Of a stretch of DNA of 64,000 nucleotides, positions 1,396 through 62,117 are shown one piece after another. This DNA comes from Cyanobacteria bacterium P01_F01_bin.150 (lineage in GTDB: Bacteria; Cyanobacteriota; Cyanobacteriia; CAKZMO01): assembly GCA_039189765.1 (NCBI GenBank), contig JBCCYL010000001.1, forward strand, positions 32,001 through 96,000, in the 5' to 3' direction. Every line of letters starts with the position of its first letter. Position 1 is the stretch's first letter. The notes under the pieces are model-generated. The model saw nothing but the letters and a program-made list of their open reading frames with translations. It had not been told where the DNA came from and made no database searches. Position numbers and translations under genes: made by a program.

Positions 1396-1424
1396 AGTTC
1401 TAATTTTTAACCATTATTTGGAAC

Positions 1425-4461: not shown

Positions 4462-5043
4462 TCAATGAAACGGACAGCGATCGCCCTCTTTACTGCCAAA
4501 CCGTCCCTCCACCCGATGATTTGGATCAAGGGTTTGAGTGCGAACGCGACCAAATTTTTCTAGGGTATCCGTTGCCGTGCTGCGTTCAAAGCGAATGCTA
4601 CCGCCTTCGTCTCCCACAAACTTTTTACACACTGCCTTATGGGAGCGGGCCAGTTCAGCATAGGCTTCTACAAAGCGATCGTGGTAGGAATGGAGGGCTG
4701 GGGGTAGCGTAGCAAAGGTCGGCGACAGACGTTTCCAGAGCTGCACCAGCACCGCGTGTTCCCAAGACATAAGCCCGCTAAAGTTATCGGACTGCACATG
4801 GGGAGGAGTCATACTAGGACGGACGACAGTTTCGTAGTCCTGGGTGCTAAAGCTTCCAGCCAACTCCATCGATGCGGCTGATGCCAGCATTAGGGTGGTG
4901 GCGGTATCGAGTTCGACCTGGGCCGAAGGGATGTCGTTAAGGGCGATCGCCTCTTCAAATCGACGCAAACACATTAGCAACCCTTGGACGTTAACAAAGA
5001 AAGACCAGTGAAACCCTTGCCAGGTTTGTTGAACAGAAGTCAT
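4462..5043 (-). CDS. SfmD/TyrH-like heme-dependent aromatic oxygenase (putative tyrosine ring hydroxylase)
   Basis: 193 aa. WQGFHWSF, AGS..Y...VRPSM..FSGLMSWEH, then exactly 38 residues to HKAVC (H-x38-H-xxx-C, the SfmD heme motif). C-terminal CPFH. Confidence 0.65.
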   Translation of the reverse strand: MTSVQQTWQGFHWSFFVNVQGLLMCLRRFEEAIALNDIPSAQVELDTATTLMLASAASMELAGSFSTQDYETVVRPSMTPPHVQSDNFSGLMSWEHAVLVQLWKRLSPTFATLPPALHSYHDRFVEAYAELARSHKAVCKKFVGDEGGSIRFERSTATDTLEKFGRVRTQTLDPNHRVEGRFGSKEGDRCPFH

Positions 5044-5292
5044 GGGAGTTAGGGAGTTAGGGAGTTAGGGAGTTGGGGAGTTAGGGAGTTAGGGAGTTGG
5101 GGAGTTGGGGAGTTGGGGAGTTGGGGAGTTAGGGAGTTGGGGAGTTGGGGAGTTGGGGGATAGCGTACTCCGGTTCCCCTCCTGGGAGGGGCTAGGGGTG
5201 GGTCTGTTGGATTTTGGCCCCTGGTTCCCAGACTCCGGCTGGGAGCCTAATAGGGAGACTCCGGCTCGGTGTAGGAGCCAGAGTCTCGGGTG
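5044..5292. repeat. Intergenic repeat patch: (GGGGAGTT/AGGGAGTT)n array, hairpin core element and CCCAGACTCCGGCTGGGA palindromic element
   Basis: 8-mer array ~5044-5160. GGTTCCCCTCCTGGGAGGGGCTAGGGGTGGGT at ~5171-5203. Element at ~5220-5290 also occurs at ~23777-23820 and ~42490-42565. Confidence 0.9.
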
Positions 5293-5293
5293 T

Positions 5294-5782
5294 TTATTCA
5301 AGATTAAAAATACGGGTAAGGAGAAGGGCGATTGCCTCAAATCCTTGTCGTTGTCGGATGACATTATTCGGGTCTAAATTGGGATTTTGATTACACAAAT
5401 AAAGAAATTGACGATAGGTTAGTAGGACACTGCGGACAATGCAGATGGCAGGGGTTTCGGACTCAATATGCTGAATATTAAAGTAGCGATCGTAATCGAT
5501 TATTTCCCATTGCTTAAGGGAGATTTTTTCTTTGGTTGTATTGGGAATAGACTGATGGCCTGTGCCTAGGGTGGCGATCGCCTGATTAATCAGAGCAATA
5601 CTCTCCTTAAAAGGACACTTCACCATCGTTTCTTCTTTTATTTTTTCCTGCTCTAAGGATGTTATTAACTGAGCTAATGCATGGGTAACAACCTCTTTTT
5701 CTTGAATAGATAAAGTAAGGTCAGTTGGCAAATCCCACGGCACCAGCAAGTCAAGATTCAAGTTAGATAAATCATCGGTCAT
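5294..5782 (-). CDS. Hypothetical protein in the tailoring cassette
   Basis: 162 aa, AT-rich ORF with AGG just upstream of the ATG, co-oriented between mbtH and the heme enzyme. No motif recognised. Confidence 0.6.
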   Translation of the reverse strand: MTDDLSNLNLDLLVPWDLPTDLTLSIQEKEVVTHALAQLITSLEQEKIKEETMVKCPFKESIALINQAIATLGTGHQSIPNTTKEKISLKQWEIIDYDRYFNIQHIESETPAICIVRSVLLTYRQFLYLCNQNPNLDPNNVIRQRQGFEAIALLLTRIFNLE

Positions 5783-5914
5783 CCTATAAAAATACCCATC
5801 TGCCTGGGATAACTTACTGGAGTCCCTGTTAGCGAAGCCATGCCCGATAGGGTTATAGAGTACAGCCGCAGTTTTAACTGCCAGGTTACGGCCAACTTAC
5901 TCACCGACATATGT

Positions 5915-6127
5915 CTACTTAGCATTTTCAGCTTCAGCCATCGCCTTTCGCAAACTCAGAGGACGCATATCGGTCCACACTTCATTAATATAGTCCAAAC
6001 ATTCTTGCTTGGTTCCAGTTTTCCCTTCCGCTCTCCAGCCATAGGGAATTTCCCGATAGGTGGGCCACACCGAATACTGTTCTTCAATACTAACAACAAC
6101 ATTGTAAATCATATTATCTTCACTCAT
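5915..6127 (-). CDS. mbtH: MbtH-like protein
   Basis: 70 aa. [49 protein letters not shown] ribosome-binding site upstream. Confidence 0.97.
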
Positions 6128-6316
6128 CTTTTGTTCTCCTTTTAAGTGTCTATCTTCAAATGTAATTTTTAAGGTAATAAATTAACCCACCCCTAGCCCC
6201 TCCTAGGAGGGAATCGATCTGTCCAAAATCCAAAACTTGTGCTGAGCATGTCAAATGCGCCAATTGTTTTACGCAAAGATTCTTTGCTCAATGACGACCC
6301 AGAATATTCACCTGTA

Positions 6317-7792
6317 TTAACCATTTAAAACACCTCCAATTTTTAATTCTGCAAAGCTGTCTTTAAAGGCTTGTAAGATAGCATCAATATCCTCCGAACT
6401 ATGGGCCGTGGAGATAAAGCCGCCTTTGTCTCCCTGACGCAGGTGAATGCCTTTGATTAGGAGATGGTAGGACAATAGGGTTAAAGCCATGGGTGATACT
6501 GCTGTTTTGGAACCATCCACGGAGAAGAAAGAGCCAAATTGAACAAACTGTACGGGTATTTCTGCGGCTTGCAGATAGGTATTGAGCTGGGTTACCAAGT
6601 TGCCCGTCTTCTGGTTTAAATCCTCCTGGAGACTAGGGCCAGCCTCTTTCAAATGGGTTAAGACCGCACGGGCAGCGGCAAGGGAGAGGGGATGCTTACA
6701 AAAGGTGCCCGCAAAGAAGGTGGTTTTGACCGTAGGCGCTGAATCGTCGCCAAAGGACCACTGGCCACCATCGATACGATCCATGTACCGGGACTTTCCT
6801 GCAATCACCGATAGGGGTAAACCACCACCCACAATTTTGCTGTAGGTGACTAAGTCCGCCTCCACATCAAACCAGGCTTGCGAACCACCCGGATGAATCC
6901 GAAAGCCTGTGACCATTTCGTCAAAAATGAGCACCGTGTCTGTGGCCTGGGTAATTTGCTGTAGTTCTTGAAGAAATTCCCTGGGCTGGATTTCAGGACA
7001 GCGGCTCTGCACCGGCTCCACCAGCACTGCCGCCAGATCACCGCCCTCGTTTCGCAGAATCTCCAGCGATCGCGGATTCCCATAGTCCAACACAATAACG
7101 TTAGCCGCCGCTTCAGCCGGAATGCCGGGGGCAGCAGGAACGGCTTTGGGATTGATATTGCTGCTGAGCAGGGATTGAATCGGGCTAAGCAGGGTTCTTA
7201 AAAAACTATCGGGGCGAGTCTTTTTGTTGATCACCCGCAGCGCTGCCTTTTTGGCGTACTCGCTGATGGGAGCGCGCACTAGGGTATTATCGGAATGACC
7301 GTGGTAAGAGTTGGTAAATACCGCAATTTTGGAACAGCCAGTAGCGGCCCGAGCAATGCGGATGGCAGTCATAATCGCTTCAGTGCCCGTATTGCTAAAG
7401 GTGACTCGTTCGGCTCCGGTGACCTCATGCACAAGCTGGGCCACTTCTCCTGCCAGTTCGGCCTGCGCCCCTAGCTGGATGCCCTTTTCTAACTGGGTGG
7501 CGATCGCCTCTTTTACAAAGCCTGGATTATGCCCAAATAAATTGGTGCCCAACCCCATCAAAATATCGATATATTCATTGCCATCCACATCCCACATGCG
7601 CGACCCAGCCGACCGTTCCGCCACGATAGGATAGCAAATTTCCTTTAGCTCTGGTGAGAACCCTAGCCCCAATGAGGTTTTATCCGCCATCACCCCACGG
7701 GCATTTTGGGCAGACTGTTTGGAGCCTGGGGTTTTCTGGATATAACGCTGAATTAGGGTTTCGAGATGGGGAGGAGAGGCGGTGGTGGTCAT
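6317..7792 (-). CDS. Class III PLP-dependent aminotransferase (GSA-aminomutase-like; stand-alone homolog of PKS/NRPS AMT domains)
   Basis: 491 aa. WDVDGNEYID, NTGTEA, SYHG, VLVEPVQSR, FDEMVTGFR, YSKIVGGGLP (PLP lysine), AGTF. Confidence 0.92.
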   Translation of the reverse strand: MTTTASPPHLETLIQRYIQKTPGSKQSAQNARGVMADKTSLGLGFSPELKEICYPIVAERSAGSRMWDVDGNEYIDILMGLGTNLFGHNPGFVKEAIATQLEKGIQLGAQAELAGEVAQLVHEVTGAERVTFSNTGTEAIMTAIRIARAATGCSKIAVFTNSYHGHSDNTLVRAPISEYAKKAALRVINKKTRPDSFLRTLLSPIQSLLSSNINPKAVPAAPGIPAEAAANVIVLDYGNPRSLEILRNEGGDLAAVLVEPVQSRCPEIQPREFLQELQQITQATDTVLIFDEMVTGFRIHPGGSQAWFDVEADLVTYSKIVGGGLPLSVIAGKSRYMDRIDGGQWSFGDDSAPTVKTTFFAGTFCKHPLSLAAARAVLTHLKEAGPSLQEDLNQKTGNLVTQLNTYLQAAEIPVQFVQFGSFFSVDGSKTAVSPMALTLLSYHLLIKGIHLRQGDKGGFISTAHSSEDIDAILQAFKDSFAELKIGGVLNG

Positions 7793-7850
7793 TTTAGGTT
7801 AGGGAGTTAGAGGGTTGGGAGGTTAGGGCGTTAGGGCGTTAAGAATATTG

Positions 7851-7883
7851 TGTAGGGTGCATTAGCGATAGCGTAATGCACCG
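7851..7883. repeat. GTAG-footed REP-like palindrome (GTAGGGTGCATTAGCGATAGCGTAATGCACC) next to GGG(A/C)GTTA 8-mer repeats
   Basis: Inverted arms GGTGCATTA / TAATGCACC read directly. Confidence 0.75.
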
Positions 7884-7900
7884 TTTGATTTGCTCATGGG

Positions 7901-8797
7901 TTAGCTGGATTTTTGACAAATAAAGTGGGCGGAGTGATTGCTGTCTACTCGGGGGGAGCCATCGACAGTACAGAGTTTGATATTGGTAAAACCTGTGTCT
8001 TGGAGGGCGGTGATGATTTCTTGGGTGGTGTAACCTTTAACGGGGTAGGTCATTTGCGATCGCGTCCATTGTTTTTCCCATTTATGAAATTTAGCCAGCA
8101 GCTTGAGTCGAAATCGGGTTAAGCGTCTTACTTTGAGGATTGAATAGATAATGCGTCGCATAAAAGAGGGGAGAGATGACGCTTCTTTTTCGGCAACTGG
8201 CTTAATGGCAGGGGATTGAAATAACGTCACTTTAAAGTGGCCTTCCATGCGTTCAGTATTATAGGTTGGCACTAAAAACCAGGCATACTTGGACTCAATT
8301 TCTCCTTCAACAATTTTGCCTTGCCACCATTTCTCCATTTGGTCGGCATGGTTCACGTCAAAAGTAAACCTGCCGCCATCCTTAAGGGCGTTGTAAACGC
8401 ATCGAAAGACCTGCCTTAAATCGTCCAAGTCCATCATATGGTTAAGGGATGCGCTCGTGGAAATCACGGCATCAAACTGGGTATTGGTGGTTAATGAACG
8501 GGTAAATGAGCGAGCATCAGCCTGAATAATTTCGGCTGAGCGGGCGTTTCTGGAGGCATAGTCCAGCATTGATTGAGAGCCATCAATGCCTGTAACTCGA
8601 TAGCCATGCTGAATTAGCACATTCATGACGTGACCAGTGCCGCAGCAGAGGTCTAGGATTTCTGCATTGTCTGGCAGTTGGTTTAAGAGGATGGTTTGAA
8701 GCGATCGCATCTGATTTTGGGCATAGTCTGGTCCCATCGTCTGGTTATACAGCCATGCCCAAGTGTCATATTCAGCGTGTGTGTTGGTTACCGTCAT
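7901..8797 (-). CDS. Class I SAM-dependent methyltransferase (possible N-methyltransferase)
   Basis: 298 aa. ILDLCCGTG motif I, VTGIDGSQSML, IIQADAR, FDAVISTSASLNH, ALKDGGRFTFD. Confidence 0.9.
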   Translation of the reverse strand: MTVTNTHAEYDTWAWLYNQTMGPDYAQNQMRSLQTILLNQLPDNAEILDLCCGTGHVMNVLIQHGYRVTGIDGSQSMLDYASRNARSAEIIQADARSFTRSLTTNTQFDAVISTSASLNHMMDLDDLRQVFRCVYNALKDGGRFTFDVNHADQMEKWWQGKIVEGEIESKYAWFLVPTYNTERMEGHFKVTLFQSPAIKPVAEKEASSLPSFMRRIIYSILKVRRLTRFRLKLLAKFHKWEKQWTRSQMTYPVKGYTTQEIITALQDTGFTNIKLCTVDGSPRVDSNHSAHFICQKSS

Positions 8798-8822
8798 TTG
8801 TAATATCGTGAATGATTTTTAC

Positions 8823-8932
8823 GTAGGTTGGGTTGAAGAACGTTCGCATGGCGTCTCCAGAGGAGAAAACCCAACCATTCGAGCATTTGGGTGTACATCT
8901 GTGTTGGGTTTCCTATCGTCAATCCAAACTAC
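8823..8932. repeat. Inverted pair of GTAG-footed REP-like elements; the right copy supplies the stop codon of the reductase gene
   Basis: GTAGGTTGGGTTGAAGAAC[GTTCGCATGGCGTCTCCAGAGGAG]AAAACCCAAC ... GTTGGGTTTCCTATCGTCAATCCAAACTAC. The TGA at 8919-8921 lies inside the second copy. Confidence 0.8.
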
Positions 8933-11900
8933 AGGGTGATTGATTGGGCGGTTGAATTTGGTTTGATTTAATTAAATAGGATAGATAGATATCAATTAAT
9001 TCTTCATCGATGGGAGGGCAGGATAGACTACTATTCTTTAATCCTAGAATCGCATTTTGACAATCAAATTCTACGATTGTTGGCTTATCTTTAGAATTGA
9101 AATTAGAAGATGCATTTGTCTGTTCCGTGGGAGTTTGTTCGGTTGGGAATAAAGCAACTAATGGATAGAGATGATGTTCGGGAGATGATTGGGCAATTTT
9201 TAATAGTTTCTTACGCCATTTATCGTAAGGCATTCGCTGAATATCGTAGCCTTTATTTTGAATGCAGCTAAACAAAATCTCTGAAGTAACAGGAGCAGCA
9301 TGCAGTAAGTGAAATACGTTGCACCCCTCCCCAGCCCTCCCCTTGTTTTCAGCTTGCCTCTCCAAAGGATTTAGGGGAAGGAGTTCCGGTCTCCCCTCTT
9401 TTGAAGGGGAGATTAAGGGGGGTGAATTAATCGATAAATAAACTAGCGCTTGGCTCGCGTAGTCAACGGGTAACACATCAAGCATTACCTGACCGTCGGG
9501 AGCGCTGCCAAGCTGGATATAGCCCATCATTAGGCGATAGAGAAAATCATTAGCGTTAAATACGCCTGTCTGACTATGACCTGAGATGGGGCCAAGGCGA
9601 TAGATGCTGACGGGTAGCCCTCGTTCACGGGCGATCGCCATCATCGATTCCGCTACCCATTTTGTTTGGGCATAGCCTTTAGTGGGAATGGCATATTTAG
9701 TTAGGGAATCCTGCTCGTAAATAGTGGGTTCTTCAGCCTGGAGTGGAAATACACTGATGGTGGAAACGAAGTGAACGGGCTTAAGTTTTTCAGTACAGGC
9801 TAAACGCAGTATTTCTTCAGTGCCTAATACGTTGGTCGGTTTTAACAACGAGTAGGGGGAACCATGGTGGACCCAGGCTCCGTTGTGATAGATAACGTCA
9901 ACCTCTTGGGCTAGTTTAGACAATTTATCGTCAGATAATCTAAATTGTGGTTCAGATAAATCACCCGCAATAGGAACAATACGGCTCTTAAAACTATTCG
10001 CCTGAACCGCCTCCCAGAGATAATAGGATGCCAAGCTAGAGCGAATTCTCTCAAAGGCTGCTTCGTTGGTTTTAGCGCGAACCAGACAGTAGATACGAGC
10101 GTTAGTTTGCTTGAGCAGTTCAAATAAAATAAAGCTGCCCATAAATCCATTGGCCCCGGTTAATAAAACAGTTGTGGATGGATTATTTAGATCAATAGAT
10201 CTAGATAAATCACCTCGGCAGTTTTGAGGGTTTATAGACGGATCGAGTTTGACTTCCGAAGATAGATCTAAGGTTTTGGTTTGGGTAAGCTGCCCTTTCT
10301 GGCGCTTAAGGAAGGCAATAATCTCGGGCTTCTGCTCTTTGATTTGAAGCTGTAAATCTTTGGTTAGCACACCTTTAGGCGCATTGCACCGCAGCTTGTA
10401 ATCCTGGCCGTCTTCCTCAATCCATAGTCGAATATCTTTTTTGGCGATGGTGGTCAGAAACGTGGCGATCGCCCGTCTCTGTTCCTGTTCAGGGGTCAGC
10501 TCATCATTGTGAATAGATCTCTGGGAATTGGCCTGGGAATTGGCCTGGGAATTTGTCTCGGCTTCTCCATGCTGCTGCTCTTTTTGCTGCTGGAGAAACG
10601 CGATAATGTCAGGCTTTTGATTTTTAATTTGGAGCTGCAAATCTTTTGTTAATACTCCTTTGGGTGCATTACACCGTAGTTTGGCCTCTTGCTTATCCTC
10701 TTCAACACCGTCTTCTTCTATCCATAGCCGAATATCTTGCTTTGCCAGAGTAGAAAGGAACGCCGCAATTACCCGTTTTTTCTCCTGCTCCGCCTTCGAA
10801 ATATGATGTCCGTTTTGCGGACTGTTCTGCTGGGCATGGGTTGCAAGAGCTGCCGTTTGCGATCGCATATTGCCCTTCTTCTTTTGAGGAACAGCCAAGG
10901 GTAAACCGTTTGCTCCCACTTTAGCCTCCTCTAGCTTTCGGGTCCGCCCCCTACCCATCACCTTTGGAGAGTCAGCCCCCATGTCTAAATGGATTTCCTT
11001 ACAGCCATAAAGTCGCTCGGTATCAATGCCAAGCTGTTTGCAATACTTGACAAATTTATTGGATTCAATGATTGGAGGAGAGTCATCCGTATAAACAATT
11101 GAGGTGATAAAGTTTAGCCACGGTTCCTGTCCCATCGCATAAACATATACATGTTGGGGATGTAGCTGATCTACAAGTTCAGTTGCTCGTTCGGCATTAG
11201 ATCCGTCTAACCGTCTAGTCGCAGCAACTCGGCGACTAATGGTTTGCCCCAGAAGCGAATCATAGGCCCAAGTAAACGGTGCCCCTTCACATTCCATACC
11301 GATAAAGAGTACATCTAAGTCGCCAAAAATATCGTGTAGGTTATCATACAGCGCTGGGTCAATATTATTTGAATCAGCAGCACAGATAATGGAGCGATCG
11401 CCAATTCGTATCATATAGGCATTTTTTGCACCAATATTTAAATCACCATGCTCACCAAATACAGGTAAACTAACAATCTCACCCTGGGGAAATGGAACAT
11501 TCTCTAACTCATCAATCTCACGAACATTATCAAAACCAAGAATATTTAAGATGGTTTTTAACGACGGATCAATTAACGACCCTTTGTGACTTTTAGGCAC
11601 AATAATATTCTTGACCTTATGCCGCAATTGCAGCATGGACTCAAACATAATATGGTCCTGATGATTATGGGTAATCATCGCATAGTCAATCGTTTCGGGC
11701 AGATCGCTAAAGCTAAACCGAGGGCAGCTAGAGGACTGGTGATGATAGCTAATAATCGGATCGCACAGGATGCTAACGTGACGAGTTTCAATCAGCACAC
11801 AAGCATGGCCCAAATAGCGAATTCGAATACCGTCACCACTGTAGTTTTCACACTTGGGCTGAGGTTCCGTCGTAAATAGGGTGGACCAAAAGTCAATTTT

Positions 11901-12578
11901 ATCAGGGGGAATAACGTCCTTAAATAGCTCCTGAATTTCGCTGAGCGATCGCCCCTGCTGTCGCATTCTAAACAGATCATTCCAGCGAGGATCGGCAAAC
12001 GGCAGGGCTACCTGCATCGAGTCGTCGGTATCTAAGCGGGGGGTACTAAGTACAAAGGCGCGATCGTCTTCATCTCCGACGTAAAGCACAACTGACTGTG
12101 AATCCGTATGGTAATATTCGCTGCGATACAGCAGTCCCTCCAGCAACCGAAAAGAGGGTCGGTGGTAGCGATCGTATACCAGCTCCACATATCCCTTAAG
12201 GGGACCAGGGATGTCTTTATAAAATGGCTCTAGGGACTCGCCTCTAAAGTCCTCCAGCATCGCATCCAACTGCTGAATCGCCTGATAGAGTTCCAGCAGC
12301 TTCGACTCTCTGGCCACGGTAAGGTCATACAGGGCCTTAATGTCATCCACCTTGGAGACATCGTAATCAATAAACGGTCCCCCTCGCATTTCCGGATCTT
12401 GGAGCGCCGTTACGTGAACTTGGGGTGCCCGAATAAAGGACTCCATCACCTTGAGGTGGGACTCAGTGATGTAACAGGCCGCAGTGGCAGGGGGGATCAG
12501 GTAAGACCATGCATACCACTGGTTAATCAGCGGCTCGGCGATCGCGTTCGGTTTGAGATAAACAATGGGATCGGACAT
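8919..12578 (-). CDS. Fusion protein: CmlA-like metallo-beta-lactamase-fold diiron beta-hydroxylase + two TubC-N-like docking domains + NRPS thioester reductase (R), with no carrier domain
   Basis: 1219 aa. YLGHACVLIE, THNHQDH, GEHGDL, AADS and YAMGQEPW match the CmlA family. Two LWIEED..KLRCNAPKGVLT..IIAFL units. R domain: LLTGANGFMG, IYHNGAWV, NVLGT, YAQTKWVAE. No GGxS carrier motif. Confidence 0.88.
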   Translation of the reverse strand: MSDPIVYLKPNAIAEPLINQWYAWSYLIPPATAACYITESHLKVMESFIRAPQVHVTALQDPEMRGGPFIDYDVSKVDDIKALYDLTVARESKLLELYQAIQQLDAMLEDFRGESLEPFYKDIPGPLKGYVELVYDRYHRPSFRLLEGLLYRSEYYHTDSQSVVLYVGDEDDRAFVLSTPRLDTDDSMQVALPFADPRWNDLFRMRQQGRSLSEIQELFKDVIPPDKIDFWSTLFTTEPQPKCENYSGDGIRIRYLGHACVLIETRHVSILCDPIISYHHQSSSCPRFSFSDLPETIDYAMITHNHQDHIMFESMLQLRHKVKNIIVPKSHKGSLIDPSLKTILNILGFDNVREIDELENVPFPQGEIVSLPVFGEHGDLNIGAKNAYMIRIGDRSIICAADSNNIDPALYDNLHDIFGDLDVLFIGMECEGAPFTWAYDSLLGQTISRRVAATRRLDGSNAERATELVDQLHPQHVYVYAMGQEPWLNFITSIVYTDDSPPIIESNKFVKYCKQLGIDTERLYGCKEIHLDMGADSPKVMGRGRTRKLEEAKVGANGLPLAVPQKKKGNMRSQTAALATHAQQNSPQNGHHISKAEQEKKRVIAAFLSTLAKQDIRLWIEEDGVEEDKQEAKLRCNAPKGVLTKDLQLQIKNQKPDIIAFLQQQKEQQHGEAETNSQANSQANSQRSIHNDELTPEQEQRRAIATFLTTIAKKDIRLWIEEDGQDYKLRCNAPKGVLTKDLQLQIKEQKPEIIAFLKRQKGQLTQTKTLDLSSEVKLDPSINPQNCRGDLSRSIDLNNPSTTVLLTGANGFMGSFILFELLKQTNARIYCLVRAKTNEAAFERIRSSLASYYLWEAVQANSFKSRIVPIAGDLSEPQFRLSDDKLSKLAQEVDVIYHNGAWVHHGSPYSLLKPTNVLGTEEILRLACTEKLKPVHFVSTISVFPLQAEEPTIYEQDSLTKYAIPTKGYAQTKWVAESMMAIARERGLPVSIYRLGPISGHSQTGVFNANDFLYRLMMGYIQLGSAPDGQVMLDVLPVDYASQALVYLSINSPPLISPSKEGRPELLPLNPLERQAENKGRAGEGCNVFHLLHAAPVTSEILFSCIQNKGYDIQRMPYDKWRKKLLKIAQSSPEHHLYPLVALFPTEQTPTEQTNASSNFNSKDKPTIVEFDCQNAILGLKNSSLSCPPIDEELIDIYLSYLIKSNQIQPPNQSPCSLD

Positions 12579-12836
12579 GGAGGATTTTGGATTTTGGATT
12601 TTGGATTGGGCGTTAGGGAGTTAGGGCGTTGGGGAGTTAGGGCGTTGGGGCGTTAGGGCGTTGGGGAGTTGGAGCCATTTTAGATTTTGGATTTTGGACA
12701 GAGAGTTGGGGCGGTTCGGTCCCCCTCTTGGGAGGGGTTAGGGGTGGGTTGACTTTAGTGGGAGAGTTAGGGAGTTAGGAAGTTAGGGAGTTAGGAGATT
12801 TTAAATTCTGCCTTCTGCCTTCTGCCTTCTGCCTTT
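12579..12836. repeat. Intergenic region built almost entirely from repeats: TTTTGGA, GGG(C/A)GTT(A/G), hairpin core, TCTGCCT
   Basis: Read directly. Hairpin core GGTCCCCCTCTTGGGAGGGGTTAGGGGTGGGTT at ~12718-12750. Confidence 0.9.
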
Positions 12837-15800
12837 TTAAAACTCCATTTCTTCGCGATCGTCGTCGTCCAATTCGTCGGGAAGGGCGGCTTGGAGCTGT
12901 TGGATAGTTTGATGCTGTTCGATTCGTTCGGCAAGGCCGATGACGGTGGGGGCTTCAAATAGATCGGCGACGGTCAGTTCAATGCCAAAACGATCGAGGG
13001 ATTGGGCAACCAGTTGGGTGGCTAGCAGTGAGTGACCGCCTAACTCGAAGAAGTCGTCCTGAATACCAATGGGTTCGACCTCAAGCAGGGTTGAGAAAAT
13101 TTCAGCTAAAACCTTTTCGGTATCGCTGCGGGGAGCCAGAATCGTGTCGGCAGACTGATTGCTGCTGCGATCGGGTACAGGAAGTGCCTCTGTATCCACC
13201 TTGCCGTTGGGAGTCAACGGCAGTTGATCCAGCACCACCACATCCGACGGCACCATATATTCCGGTAGCTTAGTTTTAAGCAAGCGCCGCAGATCCTTTC
13301 CATCCTGGACTTGAGCACCATCAGATTCAAGCACAACATAAGCTGCCAGCCGCTTATCGCCAGGATTATCCTCCCGCACAATCACTACGCAAGCCTGCAC
13401 CGTTTCCTGATCTGCCAGCACTGCTTCAATTTCCCCTGGCTCAATTCGGAAGCCCCGGATTTTCACCTGCTGGTCAATCCTACCCAATAGCTTAATGCGA
13501 CCATCGGGTAGGTAGGCAGCGAGATCTCCGGTTTTATATAGAGCCAGGGAATTTTGGATTTTAGATTTTGGATTTTGGACGGATCGGTCCCCCTCCTCGG
13601 AGGGACTAGGGGTGGGTTCTGCCTTCTGCCTTCTGCCTTCTGCCTTTTCAACAAACGGATTCGGCACAAAAACATCTGCGGTTTTATCCGGTCGGTTAAA
13701 GTAGCCACGGGCGAGACCGACACCGCCGATATGGAGTTCACCGAGAACGCCAATGGGGACGGGTTGGAGGCTAGCGTCCAATACGTATAGCTGTTTGTTG
13801 GCGCTGGGAGCAATGGTGGGTGAAATTGGATGGCCGTTGCCGCATTGAACCATGCTGGCATTGACAGTAACTTCGGTGGGACCGTAGGCGTTGATAAATC
13901 GACGGTTTTCGGACCACTGTTCGATTAGGTCGGGGGAAGGTGCTTCGCCGCCCACTAGCACCATTTTTAAGTCAGGTAGTTCGGTTACAGGCAGAACCGC
14001 AAGAGCGGAGGGTGTGATAGTAATGTGGGTAACCTGATGACGACGCAGCAGGGCCAATAGTTCCGGCCCGGGGATAAGAGAACCACGAGGAGCTAGGCAG
14101 AGCTTGGCCCCACAGCCCAAAGACATCACTAGCTCAGGGATAGATGCATCAAAGCTTAGGGAGAAAAATTGAAGGACGCAGCTATCAGGGTGGACGTCAC
14201 AGGCGCGGATCTTGTGTTCCGTTAGATTTACTAAGCCAGCATGGGGTACCAGGACGCCCTTTGGAGTCCCTGTAGAGCCGGAAGTGTAGATTTGATAGGC
14301 CAGATTAGCAGGGGTAACGCTGCTGGTTGGATTGGTGTCGGAGTGAGCGGCGATCGCATCCGCATCCGCAGTCAAGTTAACAATTTTGGGGAGTTGGGGA
14401 GTTGGGGAGTTGGGGAGTTGAGGAGTTGAGGAGGTTCGGTCCCCCTCTTGGGAGGGGTTAGGGGTGGGTTGGCCTTCTGCCTTCTGCCTTCTGCCTTCTG
14501 CCTTTAAATCCGGTGAATCGCTTGTAACCAGAAGAATCTCTGCTTGAGAGTCTTCCATCATAAACTCAAGTCTAGGAGCTGGGTAGGCAGGATCCAAGGG
14601 AACATAGGCCCCACCAGCCTTCAGCACCGCCATCACTGCAATCATCATCTCAAAGGAGCGATCGATACATATGGCAACCTTTACCTCTGGTCCTACACCT
14701 AGGGACTGGAGGTGGTGGGCAAGCTGATTGCTGTGGCGATTGAACTGATCGTAGGTAAGAGAGTCGTCTTGGTAGAGGAGAGCGATCGCCTCTGGTGTCT
14801 CTTTAACCCGCTCCTCAAATACCTGATGGAAGCATTGATCGGCAGCATAGCCTATTTGAGTTTGGTTCCAGTCTTCAAGCACCTGCTGGCGTTCAGTCGG
14901 AGTCAGCAAAGGCAATAGGCCGACGGGAATATCGGGCTGCTCCACAATACTTTCTAGCAAAATACAAAAATGACTGACCATTCGCTGGATGGTGTCAGGA
15001 TTGAATAGATCCTGATTGTATTCAAAACCGCCGACGATTCCATTAGGCGTATCGTAAAGGTCCACGCTTAAATCTAGCTTGGCAGTTGAGGTGGCCTGCT
15101 TCAACACTTCCAAAGTCAGGTCAGGCACCTCAAATTTTTCTGCGGGGGGCTGCTCCAGACGGAACTTGACTTGGAACAGCGGATTGTAGCTTAAATCCCG
15201 CTCTGGGTGGAGGGCTTCTACTAACTTTTCAAAAGGTAGATCTTGATGGTCGTAGGCATCCCAGGTGGTTTGCCGGACTTGAGACAGCACCTCTTTAAAA
15301 GAAGGATTGCCAGATAGGTCAGTGCGTAGCACCAGAGTATTAACGAAAAAGCCGATTAGACCCTCAAATTCCTTGCGGTTACGATTGGCGATAGGAGAGC
15401 CAACCACAATATCAGACTGCCCTGTGTAGCGATGGAGCAGAATATTAAAGGCCGCCAGCAGTGCCATAAACAGGGTTGCACCAGAGGCAGTGGCAAATGA
15501 TTTGAGGCGATCGCTTACTTCACTACCCAGCTCAAAAGTCTCCACCCCAGCTTTAAATCCTTGGATCCGCGATCGCCCCCGATCTGTCGGTAGTTGCAAT
15601 ACGGGCAGGTCGGGCTTGCCGCCGCCATCGGTACCGCCGAGCTGCTGTTTCCAATAGTCTAGCTGCTCGTCGAGGACATCACCTTGGAGCCACTGGCGCT
15701 GCCACACCGACACATCGGCATACTGCACGGGCAGGTCTGGTAAATTGGCAGGCTGGCCGGACTGATGGCCCCGGTACAGAGCCACCAGCTCTCGAATCAA

Positions 15801-16508
15801 CACTTCCATGGACCAGCCATCGGAGACCAAATGATGCATGGTAAACAGCATTACATGGTCTTGCTCATCCAGCTTTAGCAATGTGACCCGTAGTAGAGGC
15901 GCTTCGGCAATATCAAACGGTGTTTGCGCCTCGGTAACTGCTCTGTCACGAATATCTGCTTCCGTGACATCGATAACGGGAATATCAAGGGTCAAATCAG
16001 CGGGCGCGATAACCTGGCTGGGCTGACCATCCACTAACTGAACGCCAGTTCTAAGACTTTCGTGACGACGCAGCAGGTCATTAAAGCTGGCGGTTAGACT
16101 CTCCAAATCAAGAGTGCCTTTAAGCCGTACCGCTGATGGAATATTGTAGGTGGCAGTACCGGGCTGTAGCTGCTCCAGGAACCAGAGTCGCTGCTGAGCA
16201 AAGGAGAGGGGAATAGGCTGACTTCGATCCACTGGCACAATATTAGGTGCCGCCGTAGCAGATGCTGCCTTGGCCGCGCGATGAAGGAAGGCGATAATTT
16301 CCGCTTTGCGATCGCGTAGCGTAACCGTTAGCTCATCAGTTAATACCTCTTCCGGAGCATTACACCGCAGCTTAGCCAAAGATATGGCATCTCCATTACT
16401 GCCGCCATTACTACCGCCATTATCGGCAGAGTCGCCATCACCATACTCTAACCAGAGCTGCACATCTTGCTGGTACAGGTCTGAAAGTAATGCTTCAACC
16501 GTCTTCAT
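12837..16508 (-). CDS. NRPS: TubC-N docking - C - A (aromatic, Tyr-like) - PCP; last module
   Basis: 1223 aa. HHLVSDGWS, YTSGSTG, GGHSLL. Manual code DAPTLGAVNK, nearest to Tyr/beta-OH-Tyr codes but atypical. Acidic C-terminal SLiM DDDDREEMEF. No TE domain. Confidence 0.93.
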   Translation of the reverse strand: MKTVEALLSDLYQQDVQLWLEYGDGDSADNGGSNGGSNGDAISLAKLRCNAPEEVLTDELTVTLRDRKAEIIAFLHRAAKAASATAAPNIVPVDRSQPIPLSFAQQRLWFLEQLQPGTATYNIPSAVRLKGTLDLESLTASFNDLLRRHESLRTGVQLVDGQPSQVIAPADLTLDIPVIDVTEADIRDRAVTEAQTPFDIAEAPLLRVTLLKLDEQDHVMLFTMHHLVSDGWSMEVLIRELVALYRGHQSGQPANLPDLPVQYADVSVWQRQWLQGDVLDEQLDYWKQQLGGTDGGGKPDLPVLQLPTDRGRSRIQGFKAGVETFELGSEVSDRLKSFATASGATLFMALLAAFNILLHRYTGQSDIVVGSPIANRNRKEFEGLIGFFVNTLVLRTDLSGNPSFKEVLSQVRQTTWDAYDHQDLPFEKLVEALHPERDLSYNPLFQVKFRLEQPPAEKFEVPDLTLEVLKQATSTAKLDLSVDLYDTPNGIVGGFEYNQDLFNPDTIQRMVSHFCILLESIVEQPDIPVGLLPLLTPTERQQVLEDWNQTQIGYAADQCFHQVFEERVKETPEAIALLYQDDSLTYDQFNRHSNQLAHHLQSLGVGPEVKVAICIDRSFEMMIAVMAVLKAGGAYVPLDPAYPAPRLEFMMEDSQAEILLVTSDSPDLKAEGRRQKAEGQPTPNPSQEGDRTSSTPQLPNSPTPQLPKIVNLTADADAIAAHSDTNPTSSVTPANLAYQIYTSGSTGTPKGVLVPHAGLVNLTEHKIRACDVHPDSCVLQFFSLSFDASIPELVMSLGCGAKLCLAPRGSLIPGPELLALLRRHQVTHITITPSALAVLPVTELPDLKMVLVGGEAPSPDLIEQWSENRRFINAYGPTEVTVNASMVQCGNGHPISPTIAPSANKQLYVLDASLQPVPIGVLGELHIGGVGLARGYFNRPDKTADVFVPNPFVEKAEGRRQKAEPTPSPSEEGDRSVQNPKSKIQNSLALYKTGDLAAYLPDGRIKLLGRIDQQVKIRGFRIEPGEIEAVLADQETVQACVVIVREDNPGDKRLAAYVVLESDGAQVQDGKDLRRLLKTKLPEYMVPSDVVVLDQLPLTPNGKVDTEALPVPDRSSNQSADTILAPRSDTEKVLAEIFSTLLEVEPIGIQDDFFELGGHSLLATQLVAQSLDRFGIELTVADLFEAPTVIGLAERIEQHQTIQQLQAALPDELDDDDREEMEF

Positions 16509-19500
16509 AGTTCAATCTCCTTCCGACCTTTGGATGTTGCTAATGGTTTACCTGTTGGAGAATTGCCGTTCTCCACTGAATCCGATGCCAAGGGCTTGCC
16601 CACTGGCCGCTTTAATGCCATTTGAGTCGCGTCCACATATTGCGAGAGGGCGGCGACCGTTTGCTTTTCAAACAGACTCCGCAGGGGCACCTCCAGATCA
16701 AAAACTTCTCGCAATCGGGAATTAATCCGCGTTGCTAGTAGGGAATTACCGCCCAAGTCAAAAAAATTATCCTCAACGCTAAATCGATCCACCTTTAGCA
16801 CCGAACTCCAAATTTCCTTAATCACCTGTTCGGTTGCCGTACGGGGAGCCACCATCTCCGCCGATCCCTTGGGCTGCCATTGAGGAAGCGATCGCCGATC
16901 CAGCTTGCCATTAACCGTCAATGGAATCTTTTTAATCGGAATAAACGCAGTTGGAATCATATATGGAGGTAAGCGATCGCCCAAAAACTCTTTCAGTGCT
17001 GATGAATCATCAAGAGTCGAAGCTGGAGACACCAGGTAGGCAATCAAATACTGCTGATCATTGCGCTTGGTCACCGTAACAATTGCCTGATGCACCGTTG
17101 GATAATCCGCCAGCGCCGCCTCAATTTCCCCTAGCTCTATTCGTAGCCCCCGCAGCTTGACCTGAGTATCAATTCGCTCAAGGAATTCAATTGTGCCATC
17201 GGGGAGGTAGCGGACGCGATCGCCAGTTTTATACAGAGTTAGGGAGTTGAGGAGTTTGGGAGTTTGGGAGGTTCGGTTCCCCGCCTGGGAGGGGCTAGGG
17301 GTGGGTCTGCCTTCTGCCTTCTGCCTTCTGCCTTCTGCCTTTTCTCCATCTTCTGCCTTTTCTCTGCCTTCTGCCTTTAGAAACGGATTGGGAATAAACC
17401 GCTCGGCAGTCAGCGCAGGGTTGTTGAGGTAGCCTCGTGCTAGGCCGTCTCCCGCAATATAAAGTTCTCCTGAAACCCCAGTGGGAGTGGGGTGGAGATT
17501 GGAATCCAGAATATAAAGTTGGGTATTGTGGATGGGTTTACCAATGGGAATAGAGGATGTGGAGTAGCGGGAGTTGTAGTGGGTGTGGGCAGTAACGTCA
17601 ATGGCGGCTTCGGTGGGTCCGTAGAGGTTGTGGAGGTCGGCGTTAAAGTGGATATGAATGCGATCGCCCAATATACAGGGCAATGCTTCACCGCTACAGA
17701 TAATACATTTAATCGAGTAAAGGTCTCTATCTTCCACTTCATCCAAAAATATTTGAAGCATGGAGGGCACAAAGTGCAGGGTAGTAATTTGCTCCTCATG
17801 GATAATTTGGCGCAGGTAGGCGCTGTCTCGATGACCTCCTGGCCTGGCGATTACCAGCCTAGCTCCTGTGATTAAGGGCCAGAAAAATTCCCATACCGAT
17901 ACGTCAAAACTAAAGGGAGTCTTTTGGAGAACGCGATCGCTACTATCCAGGCCATATTCTGACTGCATCCAATGCAGCCGATTCACCAGCGCTCGATGGA
18001 TATTAACAACGCCTTTAGGTTCTCCAGTAGAGCCAGAAGTATAGAGAACGTAGATGGCATTATCAGGCGTAACTGTTGTGCTGGGGTTTGTCGTCGGGAA
18101 AGACGCAATTTTTTCATCCCGAACATCCTCAGCCGTTAGCACAACAGAAACATTAGCGTGAGCTTGAATATAGTCCAAACGGTTCTGAGGATAGTCTGGG
18201 TCAAGAGGGACGTAAGCTGCACCAGCCTTCAAACTTCCAAGAATAGCTACTACCATTTCTACACAACGTTCCATATGGATGCCCACACGATGTTCGGGTA
18301 GAACTCCGATGGATTGTAGATGGTGCGCTAGCTGATTAGCCTGATGATTGAGGTCAGCGTAGGTGAGGTGCTGGTCTTGAAAGGTAACCGCTACCGCATC
18401 AGGAGTTCGATCAACCTGCTGCTCTACCCACTGATGCAAGCAGAGAGTCTGGGGATAGTCTTGATGAGTATGATTCCAATCCGTTAGAAGCGTTTGTTTC
18501 TCCGCCTTAGTGAGTATGGATAGATCCCCGACAAGACACTCTGAATTGGCCAGCATATTGTCCAGTATCGTTTGCCAATGGGAAATAAACTGGTTAACCG
18601 CCTTGGCGGTGATGCGATCGCCATCGTATTTCACGGTAATGTTTAGCGTGGTACCGGGAGCCACCAAAATTGTCAGAGGGAAGTGAGTCCATTCCAGCGA
18701 TCGCACCTCTTTAAGCTGTAAGTCCTGATCGCCAGACCCTGAAGATGGCTCAATGGGATAGTTTTCAACAACCAAAATGGTGTCAAACAGCGCCGTATTT
18801 TGGGGCAGTTCACTCCAGCCCTGGATATCCATCAGCGAGGCATATTCATAAGGTAGCGCCTCCGCTTGATTTTGCTGGAGCTGCTGAAGCCAGGATATTA
18901 ACGACTGTTCCTCCGCAACCTGAACTCGCACGGGTAGGGTATTGATAAATAATCCTACCATTGCCGCCGAGCCAGGCAAATCCACAGGCCGCCCTGAGCG
19001 GGTGGAGCCAAACACCACGTCATCCGCGTCACAGTAGCGACTGAGGACGATCGCCAGCGATCCCTGAAGCAGCGTATTGAGGGTTAGCTGATGCTGTTGG
19101 GCCAGGGTCTTGAGGGATTTTGTTATTGTCTCCTCGATTTCATACTCCCGTTCCTGCCAATGCTGAGCCGAATATGCCTGAAGGGAGTTTGATGGGGAAT
19201 TTGGGGCTAAACCAGATTGAGAAGAGTCAGATGGGAAAAAGATAGATCCAGAAGAATTAACTTGAGAAGACTTGGTCTTAAGAGCCACATTGCCCAGCGT
19301 TTCCAACACATCAGACAACCGTGAGGGGCTTTTAAATCCCTTGAGTTGTTGTTGCCAAAAGTGCTGGGCCTCTTGTTGATCCTGCTGGCGTAGCCAAGAG
19401 ATATAGTCACGATATGGCTGACGAGTAAGCGTTGCTATTGCCTTGTCGGTCTCACAAAGTTGGGCATAAACATCAAAGACATCTTTAACCACAATGGCCG

Positions 19501-19966
19501 CAGACCAGCCATCTATAATCAGATGGTGCTGAGTCCATATCATCTGATATTGGGTATCAGCTAGCTGAACTAGAGTAATTCTCATTAAAGGCGGAGACTT
19601 GAGATTAAATCCCTGCTGGCGATCGCCCTCCAGAAATGCCTCTAATTTCGCCTGCTGGTCTTCAGATGGCACGGACCGCCAGTCTTCAAACTGCCATGGC
19701 AACAACAGGCGATGATACACCACCTGAAACGGATCGTCTCGCTTTTCCCAATGAAAGCTGCTGCGGAGAGCGGGATGTTGGAGCAGCACCTGTTGCCATG
19801 ATTGCTGGAGGCGATCGCTATCTAGCGCTCCCTCAAACGTTAGGCATACCTGGGGTACATATACTCCTGTTTCAGGCGTTAGTAACTCATGAAACAACAT
19901 TCCCTTCTGCATCGGGGACAGGGGATAAATATCAGCAATGTTTTTCTTATCCATTGTTTGGCTCAT
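16505..19966 (-). CDS. NRPS: C (DCL-type) - A (Ser) - PCP
   Basis: 1153 aa. IADIYPLSPMQ, HHLIIDGWS, code DVWHISLIDK (Ser), GGNSLL. C-terminal RKEIEL. ATGA overlap with the next gene. Confidence 0.95.
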   Translation of the reverse strand: MSQTMDKKNIADIYPLSPMQKGMLFHELLTPETGVYVPQVCLTFEGALDSDRLQQSWQQVLLQHPALRSSFHWEKRDDPFQVVYHRLLLPWQFEDWRSVPSEDQQAKLEAFLEGDRQQGFNLKSPPLMRITLVQLADTQYQMIWTQHHLIIDGWSAAIVVKDVFDVYAQLCETDKAIATLTRQPYRDYISWLRQQDQQEAQHFWQQQLKGFKSPSRLSDVLETLGNVALKTKSSQVNSSGSIFFPSDSSQSGLAPNSPSNSLQAYSAQHWQEREYEIEETITKSLKTLAQQHQLTLNTLLQGSLAIVLSRYCDADDVVFGSTRSGRPVDLPGSAAMVGLFINTLPVRVQVAEEQSLISWLQQLQQNQAEALPYEYASLMDIQGWSELPQNTALFDTILVVENYPIEPSSGSGDQDLQLKEVRSLEWTHFPLTILVAPGTTLNITVKYDGDRITAKAVNQFISHWQTILDNMLANSECLVGDLSILTKAEKQTLLTDWNHTHQDYPQTLCLHQWVEQQVDRTPDAVAVTFQDQHLTYADLNHQANQLAHHLQSIGVLPEHRVGIHMERCVEMVVAILGSLKAGAAYVPLDPDYPQNRLDYIQAHANVSVVLTAEDVRDEKIASFPTTNPSTTVTPDNAIYVLYTSGSTGEPKGVVNIHRALVNRLHWMQSEYGLDSSDRVLQKTPFSFDVSVWEFFWPLITGARLVIARPGGHRDSAYLRQIIHEEQITTLHFVPSMLQIFLDEVEDRDLYSIKCIICSGEALPCILGDRIHIHFNADLHNLYGPTEAAIDVTAHTHYNSRYSTSSIPIGKPIHNTQLYILDSNLHPTPTGVSGELYIAGDGLARGYLNNPALTAERFIPNPFLKAEGREKAEDGEKAEGRRQKAEGRPTPSPSQAGNRTSQTPKLLNSLTLYKTGDRVRYLPDGTIEFLERIDTQVKLRGLRIELGEIEAALADYPTVHQAIVTVTKRNDQQYLIAYLVSPASTLDDSSALKEFLGDRLPPYMIPTAFIPIKKIPLTVNGKLDRRSLPQWQPKGSAEMVAPRTATEQVIKEIWSSVLKVDRFSVEDNFFDLGGNSLLATRINSRLREVFDLEVPLRSLFEKQTVAALSQYVDATQMALKRPVGKPLASDSVENGNSPTGKPLATSKGRKEIEL

Positions 19967-60887: not shown

Positions 60888-61949
60888 TTAAGCGACTACC
60901 ACCGGCTTTTGGGCACAGTTGTCCTGTAGCTGCTTCAGATAGGGCAAACTCTCCATCACGTAGTCAAAATCCTGAACAAAATCGATAAGACAGGCAACTT
61001 CCGTAATCCCAGTCTGACTCAATTCATCCACAAAAGGTAGACAGCTTTCGGGAGTCCCGATGAGCGATCGCCCCTGCATAAATCCTTCCACCCCGAACAA
61101 TAATAAACTATCAATATCATCCTCAGAAAAATCTTTCAAGCTAATAGTCATTCCCATGCCCTTAGCTAGATTTTCTAACAAATCATAGTGAGTTTTTAAG
61201 TAATCACAAAAGGGTCTTCTCACTTTTTCCTTAACAGTTTCAATGTCTGCTCCCAAAAAAGTATGGAGCATTAGTGAAACCGTCTTTGTTTTTGGATCAT
61301 GCCCATATTTTTCCAAACACTTATGATAGAGCTTTATCTTTGGTTTAATGCTGTCCAAATCTCCGGTTAAAAGTGAGGTCAAAACATTGGCTCCCATCTT
61401 CCCTGCTTCCATAAAGGTTTCATTGGATTGGCAGGTAATCCATAGCGGCAGCGTTGACTGAATGGGATTGGGCAAGGTTTTGACAGTAAAGGACTTACCC
61501 GTAGCGTCCTGCTGACTAATCGCTTCGCCAGACCAAAGTCGCTGGAGCGTATCAATCCCTCTCCACATGGTGGCTTTACGGCTAGCGTGGGGCGCACGGG
61601 ACAGAATAAAGTCATCAACGGTCCACCCTGAAGCAACCGCAACTGCCGCCCGTCCATTGGACAGATTATCGACGACTGCCCATTCCTCCGCAATCCGCAC
61701 CACATCATGCAGCGGAATCACTAAACTACCAGCCCGCAATTGAATATTTTCAGTAATCATTGCCAATGCCGTACTCGTCAATGCGGGGTTGGGGTAAAGC
61801 CCCCCAAATGCGTGAAAATGGCGCTCCGGGGTCCACACTGCAGTAAAACCATTCTGATCCGCAAACTTAGCGGTTTCCAACAGCATTTTATATTTATTAG
61901 AATCGGCAACCGACCCATCACCATCAAAATAAAATAAGCTAAATTTCAT
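60888..61949 (-). CDS. Luciferase-like (LLM) flavin-dependent monooxygenase of the natural-product biosynthesis (MupA-like) type
   Basis: MKFSLFYF..AKFADQNGFTAVWTPERHFHAFGGLYPNP..RIAEEWAVVDNLSNGR..EVACLIDF. Start moved from 62009 to the ATG at 61949, which matches the family N-terminus and has purine-rich GAAAGGG upstream. Confidence 0.92.
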   Translation of the reverse strand: MKFSLFYFDGDGSVADSNKYKMLLETAKFADQNGFTAVWTPERHFHAFGGLYPNPALTSTALAMITENIQLRAGSLVIPLHDVVRIAEEWAVVDNLSNGRAAVAVASGWTVDDFILSRAPHASRKATMWRGIDTLQRLWSGEAISQQDATGKSFTVKTLPNPIQSTLPLWITCQSNETFMEAGKMGANVLTSLLTGDLDSIKPKIKLYHKCLEKYGHDPKTKTVSLMLHTFLGADIETVKEKVRRPFCDYLKTHYDLLENLAKGMGMTISLKDFSEDDIDSLLLFGVEGFMQGRSLIGTPESCLPFVDELSQTGITEVACLIDFVQDFDYVMESLPYLKQLQDNCAQKPVVVA

Positions 61950-62117
61950 TATTTTTTCCCTTTCAATATCACTAATCTTAATTAGGTACAAACTCAACCT
62001 ATAAAACAATTTATTTAACTAATCACTCATATTCCAAAATCCAAAATTGACCCTCTCCTAGCCCCTACCAGGAGGGGAACCGAACCATCCAAAATCCAAA
62101 ATCTAAAATCCAAAATT

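Follow-up and report, generated by a model that had tools for sequence, protein, structure and literature searches.

A cyanobacterial fabrubactin-type gene cluster whose Dmaq cassette carries a CmlA-type hydroxylase fused to the release reductase

The stretch of DNA analysed here, a window of 64,000 nucleotides from Cyanobacteria bacterium P01_F01_bin.150 (G000:C1:32001-96000), contains one hybrid polyketide synthase (PKS)/non-ribosomal peptide synthetase (NRPS) assembly line, with all large open reading frames (ORFs) on the minus strand from 4462 to 63848. Our subject is the cassette at its downstream end (4462-16508), where a terminal module is followed in order by a fusion of CmlA-type hydroxylase, TubC_N docking domains and thioester reductase (R), then by a methyltransferase, an aminotransferase, an MbtH-like protein and ORFs of 162 and 193 residues; the reading frames are all open and their catalytic residues intact. 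Every gene that a first-pass annotation of the bare letters had named was found in its place on the minus strand with the expected domain content, including a last module without a thioesterase (TE). By gene content and order, this is the known chelator cassette of anachelin and fabrubactin for Dmaq, a dihydroxylated N,N-dimethyl-tetrahydroquinolinium: a module with the shared adenylation (A) domain code precedes R rather than a TE, and aminotransferase, methyltransferase and MbtH are all present. Orthology to Dmaq cassettes likewise supports the route that the annotation had predicted, namely reductive release, transamination, N-methylation and catechol formation leading to an anachelin-type chromophore. 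Its estimate of novelty was too high: genes 11-15 of Anabaena cylindrica PCC 7122 (reductase, methyltransferase, aminotransferase and TyrH) were assigned to the Dmaq of anachelin by Calteau et al. in 2014 (PMC4247773), and Dmaq biosynthesis is reported as established for fabrubactins, with FbnL plus FbnM serving as an antiSMASH detection rule (PMC12971057), so the core pathway is already known and already detected by that program. Two source papers disagree on the hydroxyl positions of Dmaq (6,7 versus 7,8).

Catechol formation is best ascribed to a split heme tyrosine hydroxylase. The 193-residue protein had been described as an SfmD/TyrH-like heme enzyme, and its match to SfmD holds (PDB 6vdp, residues 185-352, E 3e-11), but this gene encodes the C-terminal half only; the N-terminal half is, by family comparison, the 162-residue ORF at 5294-5782, which had been missed. 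The SfmD heme motif HxnHxxxC (PMC8179489) is present as H96, H135 and C139, with the same spacing as in SfmD (n=38), and is invariant in 53/53 aligned homologues of a chosen set. The C-terminal half is 48% identical to P0377 of Agrobacterium fabrum C58 and 57% to P0111 of A. cylindrica. Neither short protein has a Pfam or NCBIfam match in our local libraries, and the 162-residue protein was placed through its family, which counts 114 relatives among 50%-cluster representatives. A profile built from 84 members aligns with the N-terminal half of six cyanobacterial SfmD-like proteins in which both halves are fused (probability 99.5, E 3e-22), one of which matches SfmD via its C-terminal half only. 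Identity is 34% over 76 residues to C58 P0362 and 31% over 153 residues to the Allorhizobium S4 gene in the matching position. The lettering FbnL (162 residues) and FbnM (193 residues) is one that we infer by counting the gene order of Agrobacterium tumefaciens 15955 from FbnE, a monooxygenase, and FbnG, a fatty acyl-AMP ligase (FAAL; PMC11837247). Both FbnL and FbnM counterparts therefore lie in this NRPS cluster, as judged by protein similarity to the C58-labelled P0362 and P0377 and not with the antiSMASH HMMs themselves. That the two halves bind each other would follow the literature. SfmD is encoded by one gene and hydroxylates 3-methyl-tyrosine in saframycin biosynthesis, whereas the window enzyme, similar to it in the C-terminal half, is divided between two genes and has plain Tyr as its predicted substrate. 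Fused SfmD-like genes spanning both halves (322-404 residues, loci L044-L049) also occur in other settings, near A-PCP proteins and a ~450-residue gene or beside other R-ended NRPSs with different codes, possibly in other catechol pathways.

The residue handed to R is indicated by the code of the last A domain, which had been called aromatic-type and can now be placed more firmly: DAPTLGAVNK is common to all Dmaq-type terminal modules examined. It occurs in 17 of 63 extracted A domains, each in a module directly before R or CmlA-R, and in the terminal module of A. tumefaciens 15955, or in all 18/18 related loci that show a terminal module. In the window, R is split off onto a separate protein and the terminal module (12837-16508) ends in an acidic docking-type tail.

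That separate protein (8919-12578, 1219 residues) combines a CmlA_N domain, a metallo-beta-lactamase fold, two TubC_N domains and a thioester reductase (TIGR01746, 331 bits against a cut-off of 213). Residues 1-535 match, across the whole domain, the non-heme diiron monooxygenase PDB 8a90 (E 1e-137), which we take to be FrsH, and CmlA (4jo0, E 2e-123). All seven metal ligands (H304, H306, D308, H309, E376, D402 and E429, presumed from CmlA ligand numbering) and the R residues Y969/K973 are invariant in 24/24 aligned CmlA-R proteins, picked from 120 listed homologues; the ligand motifs are also kept in 14/14 loci, in which R is intact. Identity across the family is 53-62%. Enzymes of the CmlA family, FrsH included, take as substrate a residue tethered to a carrier (PMC7794379). 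CmlA (chloramphenicol) and FrsH (FR900359) are free-standing proteins, whereas the window domain, with its ligands complete, is fused to docking domain and reductase, and its predicted substrate is DOPA or Tyr. A tandem duplication of TubC_N (10363-10790, 72% DNA identity, copies 300 bp apart) adds ~200 residues to the length typical of most homologues; L005, a close relative, has one copy. Wherever CmlA-fusion loci show a terminal module, the hydroxylase stands directly between the last PCP and R, and an acidic docking-type tail closes the module; the modules further upstream differ from locus to locus. Most simply read, R has been separated from the last module and docks onto it again through TubC_N, which would bring the hydroxylase to the same carrier.

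Taken together, we favour, with modest confidence, a reading in which the Dmaq cassette of a fabrubactin-type cluster works with an intact CmlA-type hydroxylase to place a beta-hydroxylated Dmaq catechol at the end of a lipopeptide siderophore. That the product is a Dmaq-type siderophore is very probable; that the hydroxyl ends up on the catechol residue is less sure, but still probable. Beta-hydroxylation, which the first-pass annotation had flagged with a 'perhaps', is the new part: the gene content makes a hydroxy-Dmaq product likely, and with it the production by this cyanobacterium of a fabrubactin relative that is undescribed and probably hydroxylated. In the proposed route, the 162- and 193-residue proteins would together form a heme enzyme converting L-Tyr to L-DOPA, as orthology to FbnL/FbnM suggests, and the terminal A domain with MbtH would load L-DOPA onto the last PCP, as the identical code suggests. 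The CmlA-R protein would clip via TubC_N onto the acidic C-terminal tail of the terminal module, and its diiron domain would hydroxylate C-beta of the carrier-bound residue on the precedent of CmlA and FrsH, the least certain step. Condensation with an acyl-polyketide-Asn-Gly-Val-Gly-PK-Ala-thiazole-Gly-Ala-Ser chain (residues presumed from the A-domain codes) would be followed by release from R as an aldehyde, which the aminotransferase would turn into an amine and the methyltransferase dimethylate. Catechol oxidation and aza-annulation, a ring closure proposed for anachelin (PMC6562677), would then close the tetrahydroquinolinium to give 4-hydroxy-Dmaq. Further upstream, alpha-hydroxycarboxylate ligands would come from the flavin monooxygenase, the role suggested for FbnE.

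Several observations weigh against this. A benzylic alcohol adjacent to a catechol may be too labile to persist. Clusters with and without CmlA share the same A code, which is thus no sign of hydroxylation, and FrsH hydroxylates Leu (PMC7794379), so another residue could be the target. No significant PDB match for the fold of the 162-residue protein emerged from structure and profile searches: Foldseek placed 6vdq at rank 46 (E 1.5, TM 0.59, the top query TM among the rows listed), the top 50 of a VIA search were generic helical bundles, and the family profile found no SfmD match among PDB sequences. Nor did the Fur boxes that the first-pass annotation had proposed to look for rise above chance; the best FurA-like box in the spacer between the FAAL and TonB receptor genes has 7 mismatches, equalled by 92% of 500 shuffles, and none stands out in eight other spacers, though a scan with one Anabaena consensus (PMC4005646), taken from another genus than the host, makes a weak test.

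Some of these points would suit a cluster that makes ordinary Dmaq, its CmlA domain acting on another carrier-bound residue, acting partly, or serving in a non-catalytic role to dock R. Agrobacterium and salicylate-type cyanobacterial clusters do without CmlA under the same A code, and Ser, by its code the residue ahead of the last module in many CmlA-plus lines, would offer another target. We nevertheless think this unlikely, for the seven metal ligands are conserved without exception across a family of 53-62% identity, the domain is fused to R, which must meet the last PCP, and the terminal module is the only one seen in all CmlA-plus lines examined. A different objection accepts the hydroxylation and makes the hydroxyl transient, with water lost via a quinone methide to leave a conjugated dehydro-Dmaq (a 1,2-dihydroquinolinium enamide) like the pyoverdine chromophore. 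Such a loss is known chemistry for benzylic alcohols para to a phenol, and no other cassette gene is available to act on the hydroxyl; yet the cassette has no dehydratase either, and the products of CmlA and FrsH retain theirs, which makes this outcome improbable. The ring might also stay open, giving an N,N-dimethyl catecholamine with a noradrenaline-like beta-hydroxyl, since the cassette includes no dedicated cyclase or oxidase gene and closure in anachelin is itself a proposal (PMC6562677); with the same gene set yielding cyclised Dmaq in fabrubactin and anachelin (PMC12971057, PMC4247773), we rate an open ring as more improbable still. Calculated ions differ, making these three rivals separable from 4-hydroxy-Dmaq (y1, m/z 225.123): plain Dmaq would give y1 at 209.129, and the C-terminal ions of the dehydrated and open-chain forms fall at 207.113 and 227.139 ([M+H]+). 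With Ser included, the values are 312.155 for 4-hydroxy-Dmaq, whose ion would carry a fixed charge, and 296.161 for plain Dmaq.

The hydroxylase fusion is the commoner form of the cassette in our sample of 401 cyanobacterial genomes (G000 included). An M-like match was found in 20 genomes, 15 with a short stand-alone gene and 6 with fused L+M matches, one genome having both. Twelve of the 15 carry CmlA-TubC-R (G392 among them, with its M gene on a separate contig), two have a C-A-PCP-R protein with a salicylate synthase (G306 and G029) and one holds an orphan fragment. CmlA_N was detected in 19/401 genomes, with all 12 long fusion frames in M-bearing genomes; the other frames were 7 stand-alone ones (534-579 residues), and one genome had fragments only. 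These figures include kin, so are non-independent and to be read as counts, not as a test. A CmlA-domain search returned 202 proteins of 670-2134 residues; among the 120 matches listed, all but one partial protein combine CmlA_N, TubC_N and reductase (by eye), and every organism-named one is cyanobacterial. A single-protein search of genome contigs gave only 4 loci, one a weak 40-residue match. CmlA is absent from both Agrobacterium-group clusters examined (15955 and Allorhizobium S4). In trees of R and aminotransferase (midpoint-rooted, the R tree without L006 and both intended outgroups), the cyanobacterial CmlA-less sequences group with one CmlA-plus locus, L041, which fits a loss of CmlA in the CmlA-less cyanobacterial clusters.

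Since CmlA-dock-R predominates (12/15), a single solved structure would be enough to fix the chemistry for a family that is widespread; its product might add a new chelating group, and the domain is a possible candidate enzyme for stereoselective beta-hydroxylation of carrier-bound DOPA. We tentatively suggest, as something short of probable, that the usual chelator of cyanobacterial Dmaq clusters is hydroxy- or dehydro-Dmaq, made via carrier-bound beta-hydroxy-DOPA (droxidopa-like) by a docked hydroxylase-reductase, with anachelin a minority form lacking the hydroxylase and the window cluster a long lipopeptide member. The literature searched, with subscription journals outside its coverage, yielded no description of a CmlA-bearing Dmaq cluster or product, and no cyanobacterial Dmaq product other than anachelin. 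A 2026 count gives 24 cyanobacterial siderophore structures, the anachelins being the sole Dmaq type in that count, which has no fabrubactin-like member (10.64898/2026.07.24.740629).

The rest of the assembly line (Table 1) was compared with Agrobacterium plasmids, to which a tblastn search with the 193-residue protein led (25 plasmid records, 14 from Agrobacterium). In A. tumefaciens 15955 (NZ_CP032919.1) and Allorhizobium S4, the order C-A-PCP-R, methyltransferase, aminotransferase, MbtH, L, M is that of the window without CmlA. Clustering at 90% groups the L and M proteins of 15955 with proteins that carry the label of A. fabrum C58, the fabrubactin producer (PMC13451346). Beyond L and M, identities between the window and A. 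fabrum are 55% (aminotransferase), 40% (methyltransferase), 58% (monooxygenase) and 38% (PKS). With residue names presumed from code tables, the 15955 line reads FAAL, PKS, monooxygenase, Gly, PKS, Ala, Cys(Cy, Ox), Gly, Ala(E), an A-less C-PCP and the terminal module; the window line, on the same basis, reads FAAL, PKS, PKS, PKS, monooxygenase, Asn(E), Gly, Val(E), Gly, PKS, Ala, Cys(Cy, Ox), Gly, Ala(E), Ser and the terminal module. Both thus have a FAAL, a PKS with a luciferase-like monooxygenase, a Gly module, a second PKS, the Ala/Cys(Cy, Ox) and Gly/Ala(E) pairs, the terminal DAPTLGAVNK module, R, methyltransferase, aminotransferase, MbtH, L, M and a TonB receptor. The window differs in having R split off and fused to the CmlA hydroxylase via TubC_N, in its additional Asn(E), Gly and Val(E) modules, two AT-less methylating PKS modules and starter ACAD, and in a full Ser module where 15955 has the A-less C-PCP protein; no type II TE or FhuF gene was seen in the window cluster, unlike in fabrubactin/15955. 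On this comparison, it is an extended fabrubactin-type siderophore cluster (FAAL, FbnE-type monooxygenase, two PKS modules, azole module and TonB receptor), a relative and not fabrubactin itself, exceeding the 15955 line by three NRPS modules, two PKS modules and CmlA. The first-pass view of a backbone unlike anachelin stands, but it is not a new kind, closely paralleling the Agrobacterium fabrubactin-type line; the starter and TonB receptor genes that it had suggested seeking past 64 kb are there.

Table 1. Features of the window and its flanks; positions are those of the window unless prefixed by a contig.
Feature	Position	Strand	Basis or remark
FbnM-like heme-binding half of split SfmD-type tyrosine hydroxylase, 193 aa	4462..5043	-	SfmD match, H96-x38-H135-xxx-C139
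FbnL-like partner half, 162 aa	5294..5782	-	Family profile against fused SfmD-like proteins; same-position genes in Agrobacterium/Allorhizobium
MbtH-like protein	5915..6127	-	PF03621; 58% to A. tumefaciens 15955 MbtH
Class III PLP aminotransferase, predicted aldehyde to amine	6317..7792	-	PF00202; 55% to A. fabrum P0407
Class I SAM methyltransferase, predicted N,N-dimethylation	7901..8797	-	PF13649; 39-40% to Agrobacterium counterparts
CmlA-type diiron beta-hydroxylase (aa 1-535), two TubC_N, thioester reductase (aa ~803-1213)	8919..12578	-	Pfam, NCBIfam and PDB matches
Terminal NRPS module TubC_N-C-A-PCP, DAPTLGAVNK, predicted L-DOPA or Tyr, no TE	12837..16508	-	42% over 1205 aa to 15955 C-A-PCP-R protein
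C-A-PCP, code DVWHISLIDK (taken to be Ser)	16505..19966	-	
Two modules, codes DILQLGMIWK (taken to be Gly) and DLFNNALTYK (taken to be Ala), with E domain	19982..29071	-	Best match 15955 NRPS RS24695
C-A(Ala-type)-PCP-Cy-A(Cys-type)-Ox-PCP, predicted thiazole	29068..37365	-	41% over 2753 aa to 15955 RS24700
PKS KS-AT-KR-carrier	37369..42426	-	38% to A. fabrum P0378; KR without usual NADPH motif, like Agrobacterium counterpart
Three modules, Gly-type, Val-type (+E), Gly-type	42699..54977	-	First two extra relative to 15955 line
C-A-PCP-E, code DATKVGEVGK (taken to be Asn)	54978..60761	-	Extra relative to 15955 line
FbnE-like luciferase-like flavin monooxygenase, predicted alpha-hydroxycarboxylate chelators	60888..62009	-	TIGR04020 497 bits, cut-off 244; 58% to A. 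fabrum P0392
3' part of 1744-aa PKS (G000:C1:94118-99352)	62118..64000	-	
Two AT-less DH-MT-ER-KR PKS genes	G000:C1:99488-115596		Beyond window
FAAL-ACAD-ACP starter	C1:115593-119915		Beyond window
TonB receptor	C1:120341-122749	divergent	Beyond window
In-frame repeat insertions	12589-12854, 13571-13651, 14378-14509, 17223-17382		Also in other NRPS/PKS genes

The anachelin cluster shares with the window the reductase, methyltransferase, aminotransferase and TyrH genes, a heme half 57% identical and a Ser before Dmaq. Anachelin, however, has a salicylate starter and Thr-Ser-Ser, whereas the window has a FAAL lipid, monooxygenase and thiazole; no salicylate synthase match was found in C1:36001-125000, nor any Thr code. 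The anachelin gene list in PMC4247773, used here in place of PCC 7122 DNA, names no beta-hydroxylase. A plasmid-borne salicylate-type Dmaq cluster without CmlA also lies at 1-27171 of L053 (Acaryochloris marina pREB1), with two transposase genes between methyltransferase and aminotransferase. Fatuamide and lusichelin were rejected as matches, both being described as salicylate/thiazoline types. Release of myxochelin B (MxcG/MxcL) follows the same logic as the window, an R-domain aldehyde plus a transaminase, but uses a Lys substrate and dihydroxybenzoate (DHB) catechols, and the window differs in both; the NCBIfam MxcG match is weak (249 bits against a cut-off of 2300). Within the cassette, a motif search places the aminotransferase Lys at about 319, and the top NCBIfam matches of the methyltransferase are N-methyltransferases, yet below cut-off.

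In the window organism and Agrobacterium alike, the usual NADPH motif is missing from the KR of both AT-bearing PKS modules, which would fit a ketone left for the monooxygenase. The two upstream PKS modules are AT-less, with no free-standing AT seen near them, and in the PKS at C1:107701-115596 a motif search located neither a KS cysteine nor a KR tyrosine; AT-like matches in this gene are repeat insertions and were rejected. Short 7-8 bp tandem repeats and a 54-bp GC-rich element lie in-frame in many assembly-line genes, leaving the frames unbroken, and presumably resemble the dispersed repeats of cyanobacteria. These features, together with the lack of a Fur box above chance, could point to a cluster that is silent or damaged, or to a product that is no metallophore. 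We consider this very improbable: the cassette frames are open with catalytic residues intact, a TonB receptor adjoins, and each cassette gene has a siderophore-cluster counterpart.

An MFS transporter and two ABC transporters lie beside the cluster on the TonB-receptor strand. Directly downstream of the cluster, on its own strand, is a contractile injection-system-like locus (window 289-4285 and G000:C1:1-32000), with gp25, baseplate J and P2 tail I by Pfam and further large ORFs, outside the Pfam scan, that read like sheath/tube genes. Past the TonB receptor, G000:C1:124297-170001 encodes large surface-type proteins (RTX calcium-binding repeats in both that were scanned), two SbmA/BacA-like ABC transporters and a PKHD-type 2OG-Fe(II) hydroxylase.

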